DNA of 63,590 nt, counting the filler. It is 15 parts of 15 records of this genome, joined end to end, with 100 filler letters (N's around TTAATTAATTAA, not from the genome) between each part and the next. Parts side by side here need not be neighbours in the genome. Positions count along the whole stretch, not along the records: positions 13,911 to 16,935 come from SRR15195285_8378; 14 more parts are not named here. The stretch is one strand, 5' to 3'. Both the position numbers and the translations under genes were made by a program. The notes beneath the pieces are model-generated. The model searched no databases. It was not told the origin of the DNA and saw only the letters and a program-made list of their open reading frames with translations. Each line of letters starts with the position of its first letter. Position 1 is the stretch's first letter. Shown one piece after another: positions 1,101 to 20,665 of this stretch.

Positions 1101-2726
1101 CTACTGCACCCCGGAGCGACGGGCTTCCGCGTTTTTCTTTTGCAGCGCTGCTGCTCGATCGAAGTCGACATAGTTGATGATGATGCAGGACAGTACGTTC
1201 CACACCGCTCCGAACGCCATTACGGCGATGTAACCGTACTTCGAGTACCGATAAGTCAGCAAAGATTCGCCAGCCCCCACAGGCCCGCCACCGCCCAGCC
1301 CGTCCTCCATCTGGCCAAAGAAGTACAGTGCCAGGCCACCTGTAATCGGCCCGACCGTCGTACCAACGAAGGCTGACACGCCCCATACGCCCAGAAACTT
1401 CGCAGCCTCCTGTTTGTCCGGCAGCGTGTCGATCGCGATCGCGAAGTCCACGGCAACGAAGCAGCCGTTGCACACGCCCCACACGAAGCCGAGCGTCATG
1501 ACCAGAGTTTCGCCTGAAAAGAATGGCATGAAGAGGTAGATTGCGCCCATGCCTAAACATGCCATGTAGACGAGCGGTTTGCGGCCCCAAGCGTCGGAGG
1601 CGAGGCCGGACGGATACGCGGAAATTGCGGACCCGGCCTGCGCGTATACTGCGATCAGTGCAGTCTTTGCCATAAAATCCTGAATGCGCCCGTTACCGTG
1701 GGCGTCGGCCACACAGTCTTTATCGTAGGGCGGGCCGCAGATCACCAGATCTCTGAAGAAGTACTGCAGGAAGGCCATCGTTGAGATACCGCAGTAGTAC
1801 ATCGTGCGCGACATGGTTACGATGAAAAAGTCCTTGTGGAGCGTCGGCGAAACGAAGAAGCACTTCCAGATGTCGTCGCACATGACCGGCGGCAAGCGGT
1901 CTTTCGTGATGGGGTTGCGTGTTTCCTTGGCAGCTGCGATCGTGACGAATGTCGTGATGGCGATGACCGGAATGTAGTAGTAGTACATCGAGCCAATCGC
2001 ATCTTGCACTGGAATATCAACAGGTAGGAAGTGCAGAGCCCCCTCCTTCCCGTCAAGATCTGTCGTGCGGCCAAAGCCGCCGTCTAGCGTTCGGAAGACA
2101 AGGAAACCGATCAACGAGCCGAGGAGCATGAGGACCGCCATGACCCCGTTGGCCTGGCCAGTCTGGTCAGACGGCACCATATCGCTGATGAGCGATCCAA
2201 GCGTCTGGTTCTGAACGTTGAACGCGGCCATCGCGACCAGAAACGCCAGAATATACAGCACCTCGCCCCACATGTGCTTACCAGTCTTCCCGCCGAAGAG
2301 CGACGAGCTGTCATCCGCGCTAAGGCTGCCGTCGCCGTCGCCGCTGCCCATGCTGCCCATGCTCCCGTCATCGTCATGCGGGTGGAACATCCCGTGGCCG
2401 ATCCACATGCACAACAGTGCAGGGATCGTGAACACTGTCCCCGCGAGCAGGTACGGGCGGCGGCGCCCCCAGGACGACTGGCACCGGTCACTGTAATAGC
2501 CCGCGAGTGGCCCCGAGAACTGCGAGATGCCGCTCACGAAGAGAAGGAATGTCATCATGATCGCGTTGTTCGCCGGCTCCATGTACCCCGCCTCGGCGGG
2601 CAGCATGATCAGGCCGAAGTTCGAGATGAGCTCGCCGTACGCAAACCCAAAGGCGAGCAAGCCGAACATCGCGCATACTGGGAAGGGCTTCGCCTTCCCC
2701 TCCTGCAGGAGCAGCCCCTCCTCCAT
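1101..2726 (-). CDS. MFS transporter, SLC45/SUC (sucrose-H+ symporter-like) family
   Basis: 541-aa single-exon ORF, about 12 hydrophobic segments, GYYSDRCQSSWGRRRPY and GLASDAWGRKP loop motifs, ISDMVP and AIDTLP motifs. Confidence 0.85.
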   Translation of the reverse strand: MEEGLLLQEGKAKPFPVCAMFGLLAFGFAYGELISNFGLIMLPAEAGYMEPANNAIMMTFLLFVSGISQFSGPLAGYYSDRCQSSWGRRRPYLLAGTVFTIPALLCMWIGHGMFHPHDDDGSMGSMGSGDGDGSLSADDSSSLFGGKTGKHMWGEVLYILAFLVAMAAFNVQNQTLGSLISDMVPSDQTGQANGVMAVLMLLGSLIGFLVFRTLDGGFGRTTDLDGKEGALHFLPVDIPVQDAIGSMYYYYIPVIAITTFVTIAAAKETRNPITKDRLPPVMCDDIWKCFFVSPTLHKDFFIVTMSRTMYYCGISTMAFLQYFFRDLVICGPPYDKDCVADAHGNGRIQDFMAKTALIAVYAQAGSAISAYPSGLASDAWGRKPLVYMACLGMGAIYLFMPFFSGETLVMTLGFVWGVCNGCFVAVDFAIAIDTLPDKQEAAKFLGVWGVSAFVGTTVGPITGGLALYFFGQMEDGLGGGGPVGAGESLLTYRYSKYGYIAVMAFGAVWNVLSCIIINYVDFDRAAALQKKNAEARRSGVQ

Positions 2727-2994
2727 CCCCGCAGTCAGCGCTCACGCAATCACTGCGGCCACCGCCGCCACCTCCGATCCCCTTGGCCGTGACGGAGCGA
2801 AGCACAGTGGAAAAACCAGCCCTACCCCCTCCCTCCCTCACCCTCACCCTTTGCCACCCTCACCCACCACCTCCTCCAGCCGTTACAACGGTCTCGATTC
2901 AAAAATTCAAAAATCAGGCGACCACCAGGGGCAATTTCAGGGCCTTCCCGTCCCACGTCAACAGCACCTTCACGGGCTGGCTCAGAATTCAGTC

Positions 2995-3091
2995 CACTGA
3001 CGGAGTCACAAACTACCCAAATTCCTTAGTGATCTTCGGAAAAATGTAGCGACTCGAGGTGGGAAACGGGAGTGAACTGCATTTCTCAGTG
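2995..3091. repeat. Candidate short dispersed repeat with CACTGA...TCAGTG inverted termini
   Basis: 6-bp inverted ends. Its right end CTGCATTTCTCAGTGA (3077-3092) recurs exactly at 20526-20541 on another contig. No clear target-site duplication. Confidence 0.35.
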
Positions 3092-3324
3092 ATCTTTCTT
3101 GTTTTCCAACCGACATGCCGGCGGCGGCTCAGCACCTCACGATCCGATCCACATTCGACCGTCGTCATTCTCACGACTGACTCATCATTGTCATTCGTCA
3201 TTGCGACACTGCCCGGGAGCTGCCGGTGAGCTGATGAGAATTTCAGATCAGGCAGGATTTGGAATCGCAAATCCTGCCATCAATTAACTAAACAAATATG
3301 TCCTCTAAACAAAACACTCGCCGC

Positions 3325-13810: not shown

Positions 13811-14167
13811 NNNNNNNNNNNNNNNNNNNNNNNNNNNNNNNNNNNNNNNNNNNNTTAATTAATTAANNNNNNNNNNNNNNNNNNNNNNNNNNNNNNNNNN
13901 NNNNNNNNNNGCAGCAGCAGCAGCAGCAGCAGCCTCCGCAGCCGCCGCATGGGCCTGACGTTAGTATAGGTAACGCAACCGTAATAGTGTTGGTGTAGGT
14001 AGTGCTGTACTGTAGATGGCACGGATGTCTTGTGCCCAAACATGTACAAAGAACTACAGTTCGCAATGCAAGGTCTGTGATTGTGTACCTGACAGGTACA
14101 GACCAATGCAACTCTCTCTTCGGTAGTAGCACGACCATGCAATTGCACAACTACCATCCATTGCAAA

Positions 14168-15584
14168 TCACAGCTTGGCATGGTGGCGACTGTGGGTTGT
14201 TGTAAAAACGTTCATCCCTGAATACCCGGAGTAGTACGTCGGACAGGTTGCCGCTGTTAACTCCCACGCCGCTTCAAACGCAGCCACCACGGCGTCACTC
14301 AGTGGACCGCTTCCTGCACCGACGCAAGCATTGAGATTCTCTTCCAGCTGTGCTTCTGAAGATGCACCGAGAATGACCCCATCACCTTTGGCTGCGTCGA
14401 GCAACGAGTGATGCATGAGCCACCGATGCGCGGCGTCTTGCACAGCAATTGGCCCACCGTCGCAGGACTGGCAGGCAGCGTGGAGATTTCTCAGTGCCGA
14501 CAGGTAAGCTGGTCGCCAGTAACGCGCGGTATATTCGTGTCCAATCTTCATTGGTCCAGCTTGGGTCGGGTCGAACCGTCCACCATCACGCGGAGGATCA
14601 CTTGCTATCTCGGCACCGCTGCCGTCTGTTGCCGAGGGTTGCATGTCGGTGACCGCTGCGGCGCGTTTATCCGTGAGCAGTCCTCCGGCAAGCAGGTTGA
14701 ATGCGTAAAATCGCATACCACACTTCCGCAGAACGGGGAATAACTCTTCGGTGGCACGAGTGACTGCATTGTACATGCCTTGGTAGACAGTAGGTTGGAT
14801 CCATCCATGCTCCTTGGTGATGTAGTAGATCTCCATGACCTCCCACGGAGCGAAGTTACTCAAACCAAACTCCAGTAGCTTGCCCTCCTTGTGCATGGCT
14901 GCGAACCGCATAAACGCCACGGATGAGTTGTACCGCTGTGCTGGTCAAACGTTAGCGCGTACAAAAAGAGATGGGAGTTCGCACCGTCGACAGTCTGCAG
15001 CGTCTCACGAATCGGCGTATTGCTGTCCGGGGCGTGCAGATAGAACAGGTCGACACAGTCCTTGCCGAGCGCCGCAAGCGAGGTCTTCAGCTGCCGCCGG
15101 ACGTTGACGGCATCCAGCGATTCGTCCCACTCTGCCCACGGGTTCGCCTTCGTCGCGATGTGCAGCCGTTTCCCCACCACCGCAGCCTCGCTGTCGAACA
15201 GAGCCCCGAGAATGGCCTCCGTGGATCGTTCGACATCGTCCTCGGCGGTCTCATCGGTGAGACGGTTCGGCATTTGATACATCCCTGCTCCAGTGAATCA
15301 GAGCCTTCTTGAGCAGTCGCCAAGAAACAGTGCACACAGAACCCCAGCACGTGAAATAGTAAGATGACCTATGCAACACCGTGCTCAGGATTGGGTGGAG
15401 AAACGAAGCTACTGGCGGTATCGACCTGCAGCATGCCAGCAGCAGGCAGTGCGGCAGCGAAGGCCTGTAGCATTTGCTTGGCCGTGGCTTGGGTCGCCTG
15501 GCCGCCGACTGTCATAGTGCCCAAAATTACACTCAGCTGATGCCCCCCTGCAGGTGGTGGTGGCGGTGCCACTAATGGCCCCAT
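14168..15584 (-). CDS. Aldo-keto reductase, AKR7 (aflatoxin B1 aldehyde reductase)-like; 3 exons
   Basis: ILGTMTVG, spliced DTARMYQ, IATKANPW, VDLFYLHAPD, FGLSNFAPWEV, PTVYQGMYNA, LMHHSLLD..GDGVILGASS. Ends HHAKL (PTS1-like). Confidence 0.9.
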
Positions 15585-15793
15585 CACCTCGAGAGAAGCC
15601 CCCCCCCCCAGGCGCTGCCGTTTCGGCAACTTCCGTCGTTGCCGCGCCGGCGGTGTTTCGCGTTCAACGCAACGCACATGCATGGCGCATGTATGTTGAA
15701 TGCTGCTACTAGTATGCATGCACGAGGGCTCCTCCCGCCGCCGGCGCGGCGCGGTCCGTCCGTCAGTCGCAGCTCGCTCACTCCGAGTCACGG

Positions 15794-16597
15794 ATGGCTG
15801 AGGGTGGTGGGCGTGGCCCTCCCGTGTGTCTGAGCACGTTCCAACAGCGCTGCTTCGCGCTGGTTCGGCGCATTCCAGCGGGCAAAGTCTCAACCTATGG
15901 CGCTGTCGCGGCCGCGCTGGCTGAGATAGAGGGTACGGAGAAATCAAAGAGAGTGGACCCTTTGGCCACGTCGGTCCTACCGTCCTGGCGCTGCTGTGTT
16001 CCGCGCATTAGTACGGAAATAACCCTTGTTTTCGTGACACCGCCGTGAACTGATTGTGCCGGGCAGGAACTGAGAGTCGCGGCGGCTCAGGCTGTGCGAG
16101 GGCGGTCGGACAGGCGATGCGACGCAATCCATTGGCGCCGAGCACAGGCTGCGAGGACCCGGTGCCCTGACAGCGGGTCATCGCGTCGACTCGCTGGCTG
16201 GGGGGATTCAGTGGTACCTGCATACGCCGTGGAGCCTCCCCCTCCCTCCCTCCGCTTTTCTCTACGTTTCTAGTGCTACCTGGTTAGCTCTGCATTGGAA
16301 TTGCGTGCTGTTTTGACTTCTGTGGGCTCAAGGTTGCTATTTGCCGGAGCAGGTAGCTGGGGAGAATCGGCGCCGTCGGTGCTGAGGAAGAGGGATCTTC
16401 TGGTGGCCGAGGGCGTGAAGTTCGATGCGGATGGACGGGTTGCCAAACAGTCACTACATATTTTCGTGGCGACGGAAGCAGACCTTACCACGCGTTCAGC
16501 TAAGAGCAAGGGCAAACCGCCCGCGAAGTCGACTGTCAGCAGCCGCACCATCGACAAGCATGCCAAGCGTGCCAAATCTAAATCCAGCAGGCAGTAG
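15794..16597 (+). CDS. MGMT: O6-methylguanine-DNA methyltransferase (MGMT/Ogt); predicted selenoprotein with TGA (16168-16170) at the active-site Cys
   Basis: Exons 15794-15932, 16067-16213 and 16353-16597 (GT-AG, phases match) give TFQQRCFALVRRIPAGKVSTYG..ARAVGQAMRRNPLAP..PVP*QRVIASTRWLGGFSGSW..KRDLLVAEGVKFD. The stop sits at C of the PCHRV motif. Basic C-terminal tail. Confidence 0.88.
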
Positions 16598-16641
16598 GAA
16601 TCATCCTGCGTTCTCCTAGCCATGCCGGCTGTGACTGCAGG

Positions 16642-16710
16642 AGCGATGCAATGACGGCTGGGCCAGTGCGACTCCCAATTGATGCACACCAGCCCGAGCG
16701 AAACGTCGCT
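16642..16710 (+). promoter_or_regulatory. SECIS-like element in the 3'UTR of MGMT
   Basis: Helix I AGCGATG/CGTCGCT. Core ATGAC (16651-16655) opposite CGAG (16695-16698). Helix II GGCTGG/CCAGCC plus GTGCG/TGCAC. Starts about 45 nt after the stop and shares CAATGACGGC with the element at 5918-6047. Confidence 0.68.
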
Positions 16711-17530
16711 AGTCATGACGTCGAGCGCACCGCAGCCAGACGTACTAGGAGACCTTCTGATGCAATATAATTATGAATGTGATACTGTAACTATGTGATG
16801 TGGCAGTTGTAAAGCTGACTGAAAAAATAACCTGACAACGGTGCCATTGCAGTGCATCATGGTTCATGGATTGCTACCCATGCGTGGTGGCAGGATCCCA
16901 ACATTCATACTTGAAGCCCTTCACCTTACTTTTCANNNNNNNNNNNNNNNNNNNNNNNNNNNNNNNNNNNNNNNNNNNNTTAATTAATTAANNNNNNNNN
17001 NNNNNNNNNNNNNNNNNNNNNNNNNNNNNNNNNNNCTCAAGCCACTCCTTGGTGGCAAGCCGAGGCGCAACACCAGCCGTGCAGATGCATCGGAAGACAG
17101 CAGTATATTGTCAGAGTCAGGACGTGACCTCAACCCACTACAGTCCAGCAGTCGAAGAGATGCAACACACGCGACGCCCAAAGCGGCTTACATAGGCAGC
17201 GATCTTGCTGCGAGCAGCGGTGCGCATGTGGATTTTGGAGAAGGCGTACCCCGTGACTCAACAGAGGCAGGCGCGCAAGATTTCGCGCTGAGTCCAGCAA
17301 CTCCGAGTGAACAGCGGCAGTAGAAAGGTGTATGTTCCAGGTGTATACTCGATGCGCATGGAATCTCGCTTGTCAACTAATAGTAGCAGTACTAGTACAA
17401 TCCCAAGCGACGGGCAACCGAATGCCCGGTCTCGCTTGCCAAAGCACTCAACCGATCTCTATATCGCACTTGTCAAGCTGCAGTGCGTATACCGGTCAAG
17501 ACAATACTTGGAAAGCAATTTTCATTGCAC

Positions 17531-20410
17531 TCACGCGCGCTTGGCATGTTCGATATCAATCAGTGCTGCGTACTGCTCCGCCTCCTGCAACGGAACCGCA
17601 CACCTCAGAGTGTCAACACCTCGTGTCGTGTGCCGCGCGCACAGCTCGAATGTATGCATGCGTGCGTGCGTGTGGCGGCAAATGCTCACTGTCGTCATCC
17701 CTGCCGCCTCGGCATGGTGCGCAATCGTTTTGTAGGCCGCAACCATCGCTGCAAAGTCCGCCGCTGATGCGCCTTCAGTTAGAGCTGCCATGTCCGCCAC
17801 CTTTCGTTTGTACCAACGCACCAAATTCTTGTGCGTTTTTGCGCGCTGATCGAAAATCATCTGGTGGTAACGAAGCTGCTGAGTTTCGACCGAAGCAAAC
17901 ACTATACGTTCTCCGTCACTGTCACAGATCACGAAGAGGAAGAGATTAGCCACAGGTGTGGGGGTGGAGGCGTAGAGCATAGATCACAGATACATCAGCG
18001 CAGCGCTGCTTACCTTCTCAGGTATGGCGCGTCTGTGTCCGGATCCACGTTCCTTGCAAGAAAGTCAATATGCTCAGCCACGACGGCGGTCTGGCCTTCG
18101 TCCTGTCCCGAAGCATCTGAGTACTCCATCACCCACTGTTTGTTGAGCAGCATCGGATGCAGCTCCCGGAGCACAGCCGTGGCGACGTAAGGTTCGTCGA
18201 CCTCCTCGGCAGTATCCGACGCCAATACAGCGCAGACCTGCAATGTGAATATCCTGCGGTTGCAGCAAGAGCAGTGAGCGCGCATTGCAACTGTACGATA
18301 AAACAGCATCACGGGTAGTGACCAACGAATGCCGGTGGAGCAAACGGATCTCACCTATCGGCACCGACTGCAGCAGCAGACCTCGTGCGCTTGGCGCGGG
18401 TTGTCGTTGAAGCTGTCGTCGGCAAGGGAGGGGGTGCTCTGCCCTGATCCTGGTCTGTCGTGGGCTCGCCAGGAACTCCAGGCACTTCAGGTACCATCGC
18501 ACCAGCGGCACCGCCACCATCCATGTAGTTCTGTGTTTCACCGACGAGACTCTCGGCTGCCTCAGGCGCCGGCGTGTCAAACCATTGGATTTGGCTGTAG
18601 GCGATCCAGTCAAGATCGGACCACTTCTGTGGCTTCGAACTCCCGCCAGAGCGATGATTGCTGGCCTCCAACGCTGCAGCGCCAGTGTAAGCTAATCCGG
18701 CATCCAACGGCGGAGGATCAAGCGTTACGACGATGATACAGTGCACTTCTGGCTGACGCAAAAGTTTCTTTGAAGAGCACAGTTTGTAGAGTAGGGCCCA
18801 GCCCTCATGTGAGAGTGCATCCGCACGCTCTACCACGTAAACCATGCTGCGCAACGAAGCTGGATCCGCGATAAGTTTGCTCAGCTCTTTGTTGTTGCGC
18901 GTGTGTCGTCGGATAGTCTCCTTCCTACGCTGCTCAATCTGGTCCTCATCATCGGTTTCCTTGTCAATCTCAGATTCCAATTCTGGTGCGATTGGAACGT
19001 GGCATCGATCCATCGGTTCCTGCATTGCGCGTCGGTTCGAGTTCTCAATTGCCTCGAAGAGTGGGTCCAACTGCCAGTGACCCGCGATATCGGTCTGTGC
19101 CACAACCACTACACCGCGCCCTTTCTTTTTCTTCATCTGGGTTTCCTGGGATTGGTCCAATCGACCAAGCAGGCGGTCTAGCTGACCCTCCCACTCGGTG
19201 ACGCGCTGATTATGCGCAGCTAGTTTCTGCCGTAGCCTCTCCTCAAGCGACCGAGTGTCTTCCCCAGGCGCGTGCGGTACGTACGACACAAGCTCTTCCT
19301 TAAATCCCTTGAATGGCATGGGTCGAGTAACGGTGAATGAAATCCCTTCGCACACATCAAGCGTGGCTCGGTCGCACAGAATGCCCCCAGTCTCTTTTAT
19401 TAGCTTGCATGTCATCAACCGAGCTGCGAAATTGACATGTGAGCCATGCATGGTGTACTCGGAGCGGATACGTCCGCCGACACAGCCAATCCACACCGTA
19501 CCAGTTGTAATACCTATCGCAGTTTTAAATGTTGGTTGTCCCTCTGGAACAGGGATTGAAGTGATGGAACGAACCATCTCCAGTGCGGACAGCACCGCTT
19601 GATTCGCCTGATCGAATGCGATGAGCATCGAGGTGCCCTTGTCGTCTGAGATGACGCGAGTCAACGTGCCATCGTACTTCTTGAGGATAAGCTGCACCTG
19701 CGAAGTAATTGCTCCAAGTTCCATCACTGCCACTTCACCCTCCTGAGATTCGTAGTCGATTCCAATCAATCGACAGAATGCTGTGCTGATCGTTCTATGC
19801 TGCGCTACGGTAGTCAAGCCAGCCTGTACCTGCTCTACGACAGGTGTCGCAACATACTGCATGAGGAGGTTTGCCAGCATATCCCGCTTCTTCTCGCCTT
19901 TCACTGTTTCCCACGGTCTGATGAACTTGGGGACCTTGGTTGGACCGAGATACGTCATCAACAAGTAGTTCCCACTCGGAAGCTTTTTCTTGCGCATATC
20001 AATTCCTTTGACTAATTCATGGGCTTCGAACGAGAGAGCAACCTCGCCTGCACCCGCGTCTTCATCAGCTTTGCGAACTTGTCCCATCACGGGCCCATCA
20101 ATTAAGTACTCCCATTTGCCAGCAACCCCACCGACATGGTATCCATAAACCATCCCAGCCCCAATCGCAACATGGATGTTGAGCTTGGCAACAAGTTCGC
20201 TGATTTCGTCCTCGAACTGTCGTTCCGAGGCTCGGGCAACAACGTCCCGCTGCCGGTTGGTCATCTCCACGCTGACCCGGATGGCCTGTCCAGTTGCCAA
20301 GGCAAGAGCCGAGTAATTGTAGTCCAGATCCTTCTCTAGGTCCACGTAGTCCTCAGCTTGAAAGACTGCAATGACGCAGTCACCCGCAAATTTGATCACA
20401 TCACCTCCAC
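17531..20410 (-). CDS. Class III nucleotidyl cyclase, soluble adenylyl cyclase (ADCY10)-like; 5'-truncated, 3' end uncertain
   Basis: GGDVIKFAGDCVIAVF (first cyclase domain); ISDDKGTSMLIAF, GITTGTVWIGCVGG..RSEYTMHGSHVNFAARLM (second domain); further spliced exons near 18255-18013 and 17920-17690. Confidence 0.8.
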
Positions 20411-20665
20411 NNNNNNNNNNNNNNNNNNNNNNNNNNNNNNNNNNNNNNNNNNNNTTAATTAATTAANNNNNNNNNNNNNNNNNNNNNNNNNNNNNNNNNN
20501 NNNNNNNNNNGGTCCGCGGCGTCTGCTGCATTTCTCAGTGAGTTCTATGTATAATCCTCCACTTACCGTTGCCGCAGGTCCGCTCCCGGGGCTGCGTGCC
20601 TTAGCCTGCAGGGGTCGAAGATCTCGCCGCTACTAGTAGGACAGGGGGGATACTAGTAGGTCTCG

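Follow-up and report, generated by a model that had tools for sequence, protein, structure and literature searches.

Selenocysteine among described alkyltransferases

In the ATL proteins (E. coli YbaZ/eAtl, S. pombe Atl1), Trp or another non-nucleophile occupies the acceptor position and nothing is transferred. Tables of prokaryotic selenoproteins list a selenocysteine (Sec)-containing methylated-DNA-protein-cysteine methyltransferase (PMC1976440, PMC2398784), and for GOS the second of these counts a single Sec sequence, compared with 2,879 homologues that have Cys. An algal selenoprotein family, MDP, was described in 2020 (BMC Genomics, PMC7539508); it is given there as SECIS-dependent, with Sec, Cys or other forms by lineage, and MDP appears as a blastp match for Picochlorum SENEW3 in another report (PMC11092101). 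A Sec form of the human enzyme, AGT C145U, has been engineered and shields E. coli against MNNG (Haruna et al., 2014, NAR, PMC4150793). According to the same study, human AGT H146N is active with either Cys or Sec, and N137A inactivates the enzyme with Cys while sparing its Sec counterpart.

We examined a gene in a 63,590-nt stretch of DNA (hereafter the window, meaning the whole stretch that was analysed) for which a first-pass annotation had proposed Sec at the active site of an MGMT-type protein. Our preferred reading, to which we assign a probability of roughly 0.7, is that the gene encodes a single-domain MGMT-family O6-alkylguanine-DNA alkyltransferase that uses Sec as alkyl acceptor via the UGA at positions 16168-16170. 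The annotation had cautioned that the family might already be known, and the prokaryotic and algal entries bear this out. Sec-containing MGMT is a kind of protein already known, to which the gene in the window adds a lost His and an extra Cys.

The algal MDP family resembles this gene in being a eukaryotic selenoprotein on PF01035; the comparison is by description only, and the excerpt of that report mentions neither a U-H or U-Q pair nor a Cys insertion (PMC7539508). Prokaryotic Sec-MGMT, exemplified by a bacterial genome in our searches (G046:C4), has Sec at the same catalytic column. Unlike the protein in the window, it has both AGT domains, keeps the His, does not have the insertion and would rely on a bacterial-type SECIS within the ORF, whereas the gene in the window is single-domain, predicted to be spliced, and carries Gln and an insertion. 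Human AGT/MGMT shares the domain, the Asn of N-P and the Glu of the His-Glu pair with the window protein. The human protein differs in its N-terminal domain and its natural Cys-His pair, and its Sec form is artificial, whereas the window protein would have natural Sec, followed by Gln, together with a six-residue insertion and a basic tail. ATL proteins are similar in size and likewise consist of a lone PF01035 domain with no N-terminal AGT domain; the column at issue is, in contrast, TGA in two strains and Cys or a stop in relatives, and Trp was never seen there. Classical AGT, Ogt and Ada-C proteins are recognised by the Cys-His of P-C-H-R-V, and the motif in the window is P-U-Q-R-V. By analogy with human AGT C145U and H146N, both of which are active, alkyltransferase function may nevertheless be kept.

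Gene structure

The host is best explained as an uncultured marine eukaryote, and the gene is taken as nuclear. All three exons lie on the plus strand. Exon 1 (15794-15932) begins with the ATG at 15794, codes for residues 1-46 and the first base of Gly47, contains the start of the DNA_binding_1 domain with ...IPAGKVSTYG..., and ends at a phase 1 donor (G/GTACGG). Intron 1 (15933-16066; 134 nt, GT..AG) has a branch-like CTGAT motif 13-19 nt before the AG. Exon 2 (16067-16213), between an acceptor CAG/ and a donor G/GTACCT, holds the domain core (ARAVGQAMRRNP ... P-U-Q-R-V ... LGGFSG) and is followed by intron 2 (16214-16352; 139 nt, GT..AG). Exon 3 (16353-16597) completes the domain with LRKRDLLVAEGVKFDADGRV, including the conserved Glu, and continues into a Lys/Ser-rich basic tail that ends at a TAG (16595-16597). 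Joined by script, the three exons give a coding sequence of 531 nt (177 codons) and a single-domain product of 176 residues. Only about 13 residues precede the domain; the N-terminal AGT domain is absent and no second Pfam family is present. A tRNA search of the whole window found none.

We infer both introns from the genomic reading and from relatives. One relative (P0006) has an uninterrupted ORF to which the spliced product aligns colinearly, and the predicted exon 2/3 junction (GGFSG/SWGES) is contiguous and in one frame in another (P0022). RNA-seq had been suggested as a check on the introns, and here the first-pass annotation gained nothing: among the RNA-library contigs, drawn from four runs that were all available as contigs, we found no spliced joint, and those that cross exon borders keep the introns (X8 record 9; X15 records 4 and 5). 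Coverage by the oligo-dT run (X16) is limited to 16404-16696, at depth 2. The unspliced contigs may be DNA carry-over; given this and the retained introns, the RNA contigs are no proof of transcription, splicing or an mRNA end.

An in-frame TGA at the acceptor column

In the spliced coding sequence the TGA at 16168-16170 (plus strand) is codon 81, set in ...NPLAPSTGCEDPVP-U-QRVIASTRWLGGFSG, and it falls on the column of the catalytic, alkyl-accepting Cys. Exons 1 and 2 both exceed the Pfam cut-off of 27 bits for PF01035 (DNA_binding_1), exon 1 with 28.7 bits over profile positions 2-29 and exon 2 with 33.3 bits over positions 31-65. When searched with HMMER against the PDB, the catalytic Cys of V-P-C-H-R-V in solved MGMT structures aligns to the TGA residue, with E-values that are weak (0.14-0.6) because the query is just 48 aa long. 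The spliced frame and these alignments agree with the first-pass placement of the TGA at the C of PCHRV. A MAFFT alignment instead put the Cys of the insertion on the catalytic column; we rejected it because V-P-U-x-R-V fits V-P-C-H-R-V, insertion-free relatives stop at V-P, and the HMMER alignment supports the TGA.

Were the TGA a genuine stop, the gene would yield an 80-residue N-terminal fragment and exon 3 would belong to something else. Gene callers behind the databases do predict just such fragments, but these callers can handle neither introns nor Sec. The PF01035 domain is split by the TGA (the match to profile positions 31-65 spans the codon), in the relative P0022 exon 3 follows in frame on the last part of exon 2, and no function is known for an MGMT fold truncated ahead of the active-site helix. 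We regard a genuine stop as the least credible reading of this codon.

In neighbouring genes TGA is an ordinary stop. An aldo/keto reductase gene on the same contig and an ORF with a cyclase domain both end in TGA shortly after their Pfam-supported domains, and TGA terminates 14 of the 28 ORFs of at least 250 codons in the window. Long ORFs of 900-1200 codons (up to 1219) contain no TGA at all, and TGG occurs 238 times in 12158 codons. These observations speak against decoding of TGA as Trp or Cys, whether under a variant genetic code of the nucleus or by reading through the stop codon, as does the neighbouring GLTP gene of 482 codons in a related metagenome locus (L001), which is free of TGA. 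Some protists are known to read TGA as Cys or Trp, and both in-frame TGAs of L001 sit on columns where homologues carry Cys, which would suit such decoding; we nonetheless consider it barely plausible for the gene in the window.

Strain variation and selection

A single base separates TGA from TGC or TGT (Cys) and from TGG (Trp, as in ATL-type proteins), and these are the codons that the first-pass annotation named as signs of an assembly error. Two further contigs have the TGA as well. One, a DNA contig (X1 record 1), is nearly identical and not independent, as it may stem from the source sample; the other comes from a second strain (X8 record 9). The latter spans 15791-16378 and differs at five places (four substitutions and one indel), all of them intronic: three in intron 1 (16004, 16031 and a 2-nt insertion after 15978) and two in intron 2 (16229 and 16250), with none in exons 1 and 2. 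Introns make up 273 of the 588 covered bases, and such a pattern would arise by chance with a probability of about 0.02. Five strain differences fall in exon 3, four of them synonymous and the fifth an Ile>Val change; the comparison shows purifying selection on the predicted frame downstream of the TGA.

The possibility that the gene is a pseudogene, or that a Cys or Trp codon was mutated or mis-assembled, might draw on the single-base distance to those codons, and on the fact that neither a canonical SECIS nor spliced RNA was found. Against it stand the TGA in the second strain, whose contig differs only in introns, the bias of downstream changes towards synonymous ones, exon-3 coding conserved down to 52% identity, and the seven protein clusters described below that end at the same column. 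We judge this explanation very improbable: the TGA is neither an assembly error nor a recent nonsense mutation.

Relatives of the gene

Seven clusters at 90% identity, known from protein sequences alone, end exactly one residue before the acceptor column (P0006, P0008, P0026, P0029, P0030, P0031, P0032). Their domain regions are about 60-70% identical to P0006. The continuation beyond the TGA is represented separately: of eight candidates, seven (P0019-P0025, E 1.9e-35 to 1.1e-6) are exon-3 ORFs that were predicted as genes of their own, 52-97% identical to exon 3 and with the invariant core LRKRD..EGV.FD.DGRV. Conservation of these homologues and the mostly synonymous strain changes uphold the earlier proposal that the frame runs on past the TGA. 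Aligned with genome contigs, exon 3 matched just two distant bacterial loci, and with viral contigs, none. Because gene calls end at the UGA or are split into fragments, the family is under-counted in catalogues of marine eukaryotes.

Both TGA and Cys counterparts, which the annotation had suggested looking for, were found at the acceptor column. The TGA occurs there, followed by conserved sequence, in the metagenome locus L001 and in the bacterial genome G046, where P-TGA-H-R-V lies in a two-domain MGMT; in G046 the 71 nt after the TGA have an uninformative fold z-score of -0.15. Eleven protein relatives carry Cys (P0004, P0009-15, P0018, P0033, P0034), and these Cys-His homologues provide the Sec/Cys pairing that is usual in selenoprotein families. 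Three of 15 matches in one of the protein searches (P0005, P0016, P0017) were repeat proteins and were dropped. A metagenome scan with the pattern ARAVGQAM returned 80 loci, of which 79 are Cys-His, mostly bacterial-looking, and the other is L001; the pattern is too general, and the insertion-bearing clade is not among its matches. With the TGA kept in a second strain and relatives ending at the same column, an MGMT-type protein with Sec as its alkyl acceptor is the best reading of this gene, and a very probable one.

A SECIS-like hairpin downstream

The annotation had also pointed to a SECIS-like hairpin after the gene. A stem-loop is indeed present in the predicted 3'UTR at 16642-16710 (plus strand), 54 nt beyond the stop codon, with helix 1 formed by 16642-48/16704-10, AUGA at 16651-54, helix 2 by 16656-61/16689-94, a mini-helix by 16666-70/16683-87, and GA at 16696-97. 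It is non-canonical and goes unseen by Rfam, and the case for a SECIS is weaker than the annotation implied. When all UGAN...NGAN pairs in the 338-nt 3'UTR were enumerated, the pair 16651/16696 was the best candidate. In SECIS elements conserved unpaired A's, or C's in some cases, usually lie in the apical loop or a bulge 10-13 nt after the UGA; this hairpin has no AA at +10-13 and shows a G-C-C-A bulge 8-11 nt after the UGA, with AA only at +23/24. Tandem GA/AG pairing in the core (UGAC/CGAG) is possible. Compared with the published core consensus UGAN/KGAW, with its tandem G.A pairs (PMC3753652), the 5' side fits UGAN, and the 3' C-GA-G departs from consensus at both flanking letters.

The SECIS-like fold has an energy of -22.1 kcal/mol, against -27.2 for the minimum-free-energy fold, and the z-score of the region is -1.17. 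At 16660 the strains differ by G>T, which disrupts one pair of helix 2 and is not compensated; on refolding, 6 bp and a one-base bulge are retained. In 15500-16930 and in 16599-16780, Rfam reported neither a SECIS nor any further family at E<=10, and the whole window gave none at the gathering score. A loose SECIS scanner, with thresholds chosen after the candidate had been seen, gave 10 matches in 127 kb on both strands, three of them at the candidate's own stringency. One such scanner match, at 18808(-) and with a start resembling the candidate's (AUGA-N-GGCUGGGCC), was discarded as a false positive because it lies inside the coding sequence of the cyclase-domain ORF.

Residues around the acceptor and the proposed reaction

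The annotation had noted Gln in place of the His after the nucleophile. The codon at 16171-16173 is CAG, at an otherwise invariant column: His follows the nucleophile in all 92 other sequences examined (the 79 Cys-type metagenome loci, L001, the 11 protein relatives and G046). HMMER alignment with MGMTs in the PDB places a six-residue insertion, S-T-G-C-E-D, at 16141-16158, with its Cys at 16150-16152, six residues before Sec. This Cys is present in 6/6 insertion-bearing sequences (the window, P0006, P0007, P0008, P0026 and P0029), and the Cys-His relatives do not have the insertion. Both the Gln and the Cys-bearing insertion appear to be peculiarities of this gene or of its clade. Other residues are kept in the alignments, among them the Tyr of T-Y-G and the Arg of A-R-A-V-G, which we take to be the counterparts of human Tyr114 and Arg128. 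The Asn of N-P and the Glu of A-E-G-V are kept as well, and correspond to N137 and E172 of human AGT (PMC4150793).

Under the preferred reading, a Sec alkyltransferase, the eukaryotic Sec machinery would recode the UGA, with the non-canonical stem-loop (16642-16710) as the most likely signal. The protein would bind DNA and flip out O6-alkylguanine like other AGTs, and the selenolate, already ionised at physiological pH, would accept the alkyl group irreversibly by a single SN2 reaction. The His beside the nucleophile would be dispensable, because Sec needs no activation, and may have drifted to Gln. The Cys of the insertion probably forms a selenenylsulfide with Sec, which would shield it from oxidation and make activity dependent on reduction, and the basic C-terminal tail is probably used for nuclear import or DNA contact. 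MGMT is a textbook suicide enzyme, and a natural selenium version would mean that marine protists bear the cost of a more reactive nucleophile even where each protein molecule is used only once. The engineered human C145U enzyme would have an equivalent in nature, and loss of the neighbouring His fits the view, backed by that enzyme, that Sec needs no activating residues. We know of no single-domain AGT that has been assayed in either a Cys or a Sec form.

Several of these features could also belong to a selenoprotein that is no suicide enzyme and acts, via Cys-x5-Sec, as a redox-switched ATL-like damage sensor that passes lesions on to excision repair, or as a multi-turnover dealkylase. The single-domain architecture is that of ATL proteins, the Cys six residues before Sec is invariant with a spacing that suits a selenenylsulfide, the His of the catalytic network is lost, and Sec in a single-use protein looks costly, as the annotation had argued, since each repair would spend one Se atom. 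Relatives without the insertion nevertheless have a stop (P0030, P0031, P0032, L001) or Cys at the column, so the conserved feature is the nucleophile and not the Cys pair. ATL proteins, moreover, are defined by the missing nucleophile, and to our knowledge no chemistry frees a protein selenoether of its alkyl group. In vivo, the engineered Sec-AGT carries out repair of the ordinary kind, and H146N is tolerated (PMC4150793). We consider a sensor or dealkylase unlikely.

The extra conserved Cys offers a handle on whether Sec-Cys redox chemistry was grafted onto DNA repair. As a speculative extension, which we would not favour yet think deserves some weight, the gene may represent a distinct eukaryotic clade of Sec-alkyltransferases marked by U-Q and by a selenenylsulfide between the insertion Cys and Sec, with redox-gated repair or Cys-aided discharge of the alkyl group. 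If so, repair capacity would be gated by redox state, or the protein would not be strictly single-use.

A fused relative with two in-frame TGAs

In the metagenome locus L001 an MGMT-type enzyme is fused to DUF3253, and the second of its in-frame TGAs lies inside that domain. A search of L001 positions 2600-3245 against Rfam gave only two chance miRNA-like matches. If Sec is inserted at the second TGA, DUF3253 would be a selenoprotein domain that has so far gone unrecognised and that is linked to alkylation repair.

An in-frame TGA at the acceptor column of an MGMT-type gene

We read the MGMT gene by hand from the sequence and then checked the model by script. Exon 1 (15794–15932, plus strand) and exon 2 (16067–16213) match positions 2–29 and 31–65 of the Pfam PF01035 profile, both above cut-off, and exon 3 (16353–16597) ends at a TAG stop (16595–16597). 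The inferred introns, both GT..AG and on the same strand, are 134 and 139 nt long. The predicted spliced coding sequence is 531 nt, and its codon 81 is TGA (16168–16170). Splicing is required because the PF01035 matches of exons 1 and 2 fall in different genomic frames. The predicted exon 2/3 junction is confirmed by homology to the database relative P0022, which reads across it as a single uninterrupted ORF (...GGFSGSWGESAPSV...). The exon 1/2 junction is plausible and less certain. Another relative, P0006, has an uninterrupted ORF with which the spliced product is colinear, and the linker at this point varies among relatives. Neither spliced joint was seen in any RNA contig examined. A 226-nt DNA contig from a public run (X1 record 2; 15837–16160) is ~89% identical to exons 1 and 2, with 85 letters replacing 222 between the two matches, where 88 nt would be expected without intron 1. 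It stops 8 nt short of the TGA and looks like a related species or paralogue lacking this intron.

In HMMER alignments with exon 2 as query, the TGA residue falls on the Cys of V-P-C-H-R-V in solved MGMT structures (M. tuberculosis, M. jannaschii and human entries), the placement proposed in the first-pass annotation. The alignment opens a six-residue gap for S-T-G-C-E-D immediately before P-V-P. MAFFT instead placed the Cys of this insertion on the catalytic column. We rejected that alignment: V-P-U-x-R-V fits the motif, relatives without the insertion stop directly after V-P, and TGA directly precedes H-R-V in a metagenome contig (L001) and a bacterial genome (G046).

TGA otherwise serves as a stop in this DNA. 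It terminates 14 of the 28 ORFs of at least 250 codons and is absent in frame from ORFs as long as 1219 codons. Two Pfam-supported ORFs end in it, a cyclase-domain ORF and the aldo/keto reductase gene that shares piece 13911–16935 with the MGMT gene. For Trp the codon is TGG, with 238 occurrences in 12158 codons.

Comparative evidence for read-through

Codon 81 is again TGA in a second strain, in a metatranscriptome-library contig (X8 record 9; 15791–16378). This contig differs from the window by four bases and one 2-nt indel, and all five differences are intronic, introns making up 273 of the 588 covered bases. Exon 3 of the same strain carries five differences, four synonymous (Val, Gln, Leu, Leu) and one Ile>Val; P0019 is the database protein of this variant.

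Searching 1.84 billion protein representatives in full by HMMER with exon 2 gave 15 matches at E<=1e-3. Three were dropped as repeat artefacts, nine are Cys-His relatives and three carry the insertion. Of the latter, P0006 and P0008 stop at ...P-V-P, a single residue short of the column, and P0007 continues into unrelated residues. With P0006 as query there were 12 matches: seven clusters end exactly before the column (P0006, P0008, P0026, P0029, P0030, P0031 and P0032), two within the insertion (P0027 and P0028), one is P0007 again, and two are complete Cys-His proteins (P0033 and P0034). The exon 3 search returned seven matches among eight candidates, all separately called ORFs downstream of the stop. 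They are 52–97% identical to the window and share an invariant L-R-K-R-D..E-G-V.F-D.D-G-R-V core, in keeping with the earlier claim that the frame beyond the TGA is conserved. A stop at one column across diverged relatives, with selection acting behind it, is the mark of a selenoprotein gene that standard gene finders have called wrongly. The stop in these relatives would be TGA, judging only by the window, L001 and G046. Selenocysteine at the acceptor site of an MGMT-type protein is thus supported, mainly by comparative evidence.

A candidate SECIS element

The only good stem-loop within the 338-nt 3'UTR lies at 16642–16710 (plus strand). It comprises a 7-bp helix 1, a 2/6-nt internal loop and a 6-bp helix 2, with AUGA (16651–16654) opposite GA (16696–16697), followed by a C.C mismatch before helix 2; above this helix are a G-C-C-A/A bulge, a 5-bp mini-helix and a 12-nt loop. 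The hairpin announced by the first-pass annotation is present, and its identity as a SECIS is partly confirmed. The 3' half of its core is C-GA-G, off the published consensus K-GA-W (PMC3753652), AA was not found in it at the usual SECIS distance, and the fold is not the minimum-energy fold of the region. Rfam gave no SECIS match in the gene region, its 3'UTR or the whole window. The strain difference 16660 G>T disrupts one helix-2 pair, and the refolded helix retains six pairs with a bulged U. A loose pattern scanner found 10 such elements in 127 kb, three at the candidate's stringency; by chance, one would fall on the correct strand of the relevant 300 nt in roughly 1–2% of cases, the thresholds having been chosen with the candidate already in view. 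We regard the hairpin as a probable, non-canonical SECIS candidate, at about even odds. Since it is non-canonical and lacks an Rfam match, the Sec-encoding call rests mainly on comparison. One of the three strict matches, at 18749–18808 (minus strand; AUGA-N-GGCUGGGCC, like 16651), was rejected as a chance false positive because a guanylate/adenylate cyclase-domain ORF (18351–20462) contains it within its coding sequence.

Active site and predicted mechanism

The alignments show that the residues defining DNA binding and the pocket of the active site are kept: Tyr in T-Y-G, Arg in A-R-A-V-G, Asn in N-P and Glu in A-E-G-V. The replacement of the His after the nucleophile by Gln, noticed at the outset, is unusual: His occupies this position in all 92 other sequences examined (79 Cys-type metagenome loci and L001, making 80 loci, 11 protein relatives and G046). 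In ada ogt E. coli, human AGT whose residue 145 is Sec gives protection against MNNG. The H146N mutant is as active as wild type with either Cys or Sec, and N137A abolishes the activity of the Cys enzyme while sparing that of the Sec form (Haruna et al., PMC4150793). These engineered proteins are experimental precedent for a selenolate acceptor in the AGT fold and for a dispensable adjacent His, which fits the U-Q pair of the MGMT gene product. By this precedent the mechanism would be ordinary single-turnover SN2 transfer, with the O6-alkyl group passing onto selenium instead of sulfur.

All six insertion-bearing sequences (the window, P0006, P0007, P0008, P0026 and P0029) have the insertion Cys, six residues before the Sec position (eight in P0029). 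It may form a selenenylsulfide that protects or gates the Sec. The Lys/Ser-rich C-terminal tail shows little sequence conservation among relatives and retains its basic character, which suggests a role in nuclear targeting or non-specific DNA contact.

Source and genomic setting

About 15 contigs of 3–7 kb each are chained in the window through 14 linker sites (N44-TTAATTAATTAA-N44) within 3325–60225, so genes flanking a linker need not be neighbours. The aldo/keto reductase gene (PF00248; 14168–14944 and 14860–15297, minus strand) is divergent from the MGMT gene. An apparent 44-nt GT..AG intron with a CTAAC branch motif (14941–14984, minus strand), read by hand, would link its overlapping ORFs and is very short next to the introns of the MGMT gene (134 and 139 nt). 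Coding regions for eukaryotic proteins occur on other pieces, among them a formin-like ORF in which Pfam finds PH, Drf_GBD and Drf_FH3 domains. The region 15700–16900 is present, at least partly, in 19 public runs from 16 studies, all labeled as marine, seawater, aquatic or surface metagenomes, and we therefore assign the DNA to an uncultured marine eukaryote. In two runs from one study (X8 and X15), the contigs part from the window immediately upstream of 15791, which is three bases ahead of the ATG; their loose ends look like the upstream sequence of the window carrying an indel (15753–15793). A structural difference between strains in the 5' leader or promoter seems a likelier cause than a spliced leader.

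Relation to known selenoproteins and further candidates

The suspicion that the family may not be new was well founded, as it is listed for both prokaryotes and algae. A Sec-containing "methylated-DNA-protein-cysteine methyltransferase" appears in a table of known prokaryotic selenoproteins (PMC1976440), and the GOS table for pfam01035 gives one Sec sequence and 2,879 Cys homologues (PMC2398784). In algae, "MDP" is listed among 42 selenoprotein families and is not one of the three novel ones; the Sec motif turned non-Sec in some lineages (Jiang et al., 2020, PMC7539508). A blastp match to MDP is reported for Picochlorum (PMC11092101). Neither MDP nor Sec-MGMT comes up in the searched passages of Lobanov et al. 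(2007, PMC2375036) or Liang et al. (2019, PMC6627142), and literature searches linking selenocysteine to O6-methylguanine, SECIS and algae returned no paper. The evidence supports a new member of a known selenoprotein family: the in-frame TGA is confirmed, its reading as Sec supported, and the SECIS and splicing putative. The two active-site peculiarities, U-Q and the Cys-bearing insertion, are possibly clade-specific. We found no paper describing either; published MDP sequences, held in supplements, lie outside this comparison, and the variant may or may not be new relative to them.

Among the 150 PF01035 matches listed (375 further; 301 genomes of one phylum), one bacterial two-domain MGMT has a single in-frame TGA, at the catalytic column in P-TGA-H-R-V (L083; G046:C4:249100-250200, minus strand). 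Conserved sequence continues after the TGA, making it a candidate prokaryotic Sec-MGMT; folding of the following 71 nt was uninformative.

A single-exon ORF on the 30% GC contig L001 (2091–2819) has two in-frame TGAs, one at the acceptor column (P-U-H-R-V, 2289–2291) and one after ...G-K-T-C (2625–2627). The remaining 426 nt yielded no SECIS, and DUF3253 is mentioned in no paper that our literature search found. Read through, the ORF matches DNA_binding_1 (96 bits) and a complete DUF3253 (PF11625; 75 bits, profile 3–80 of 81) that spans the second TGA, and it may be an MGMT-DUF3253 fusion with two selenocysteines. The neighboring 482-codon GLTP gene contains no TGA, and P0015, a Cys-type relative, breaks off at the same G-K-T-C point.
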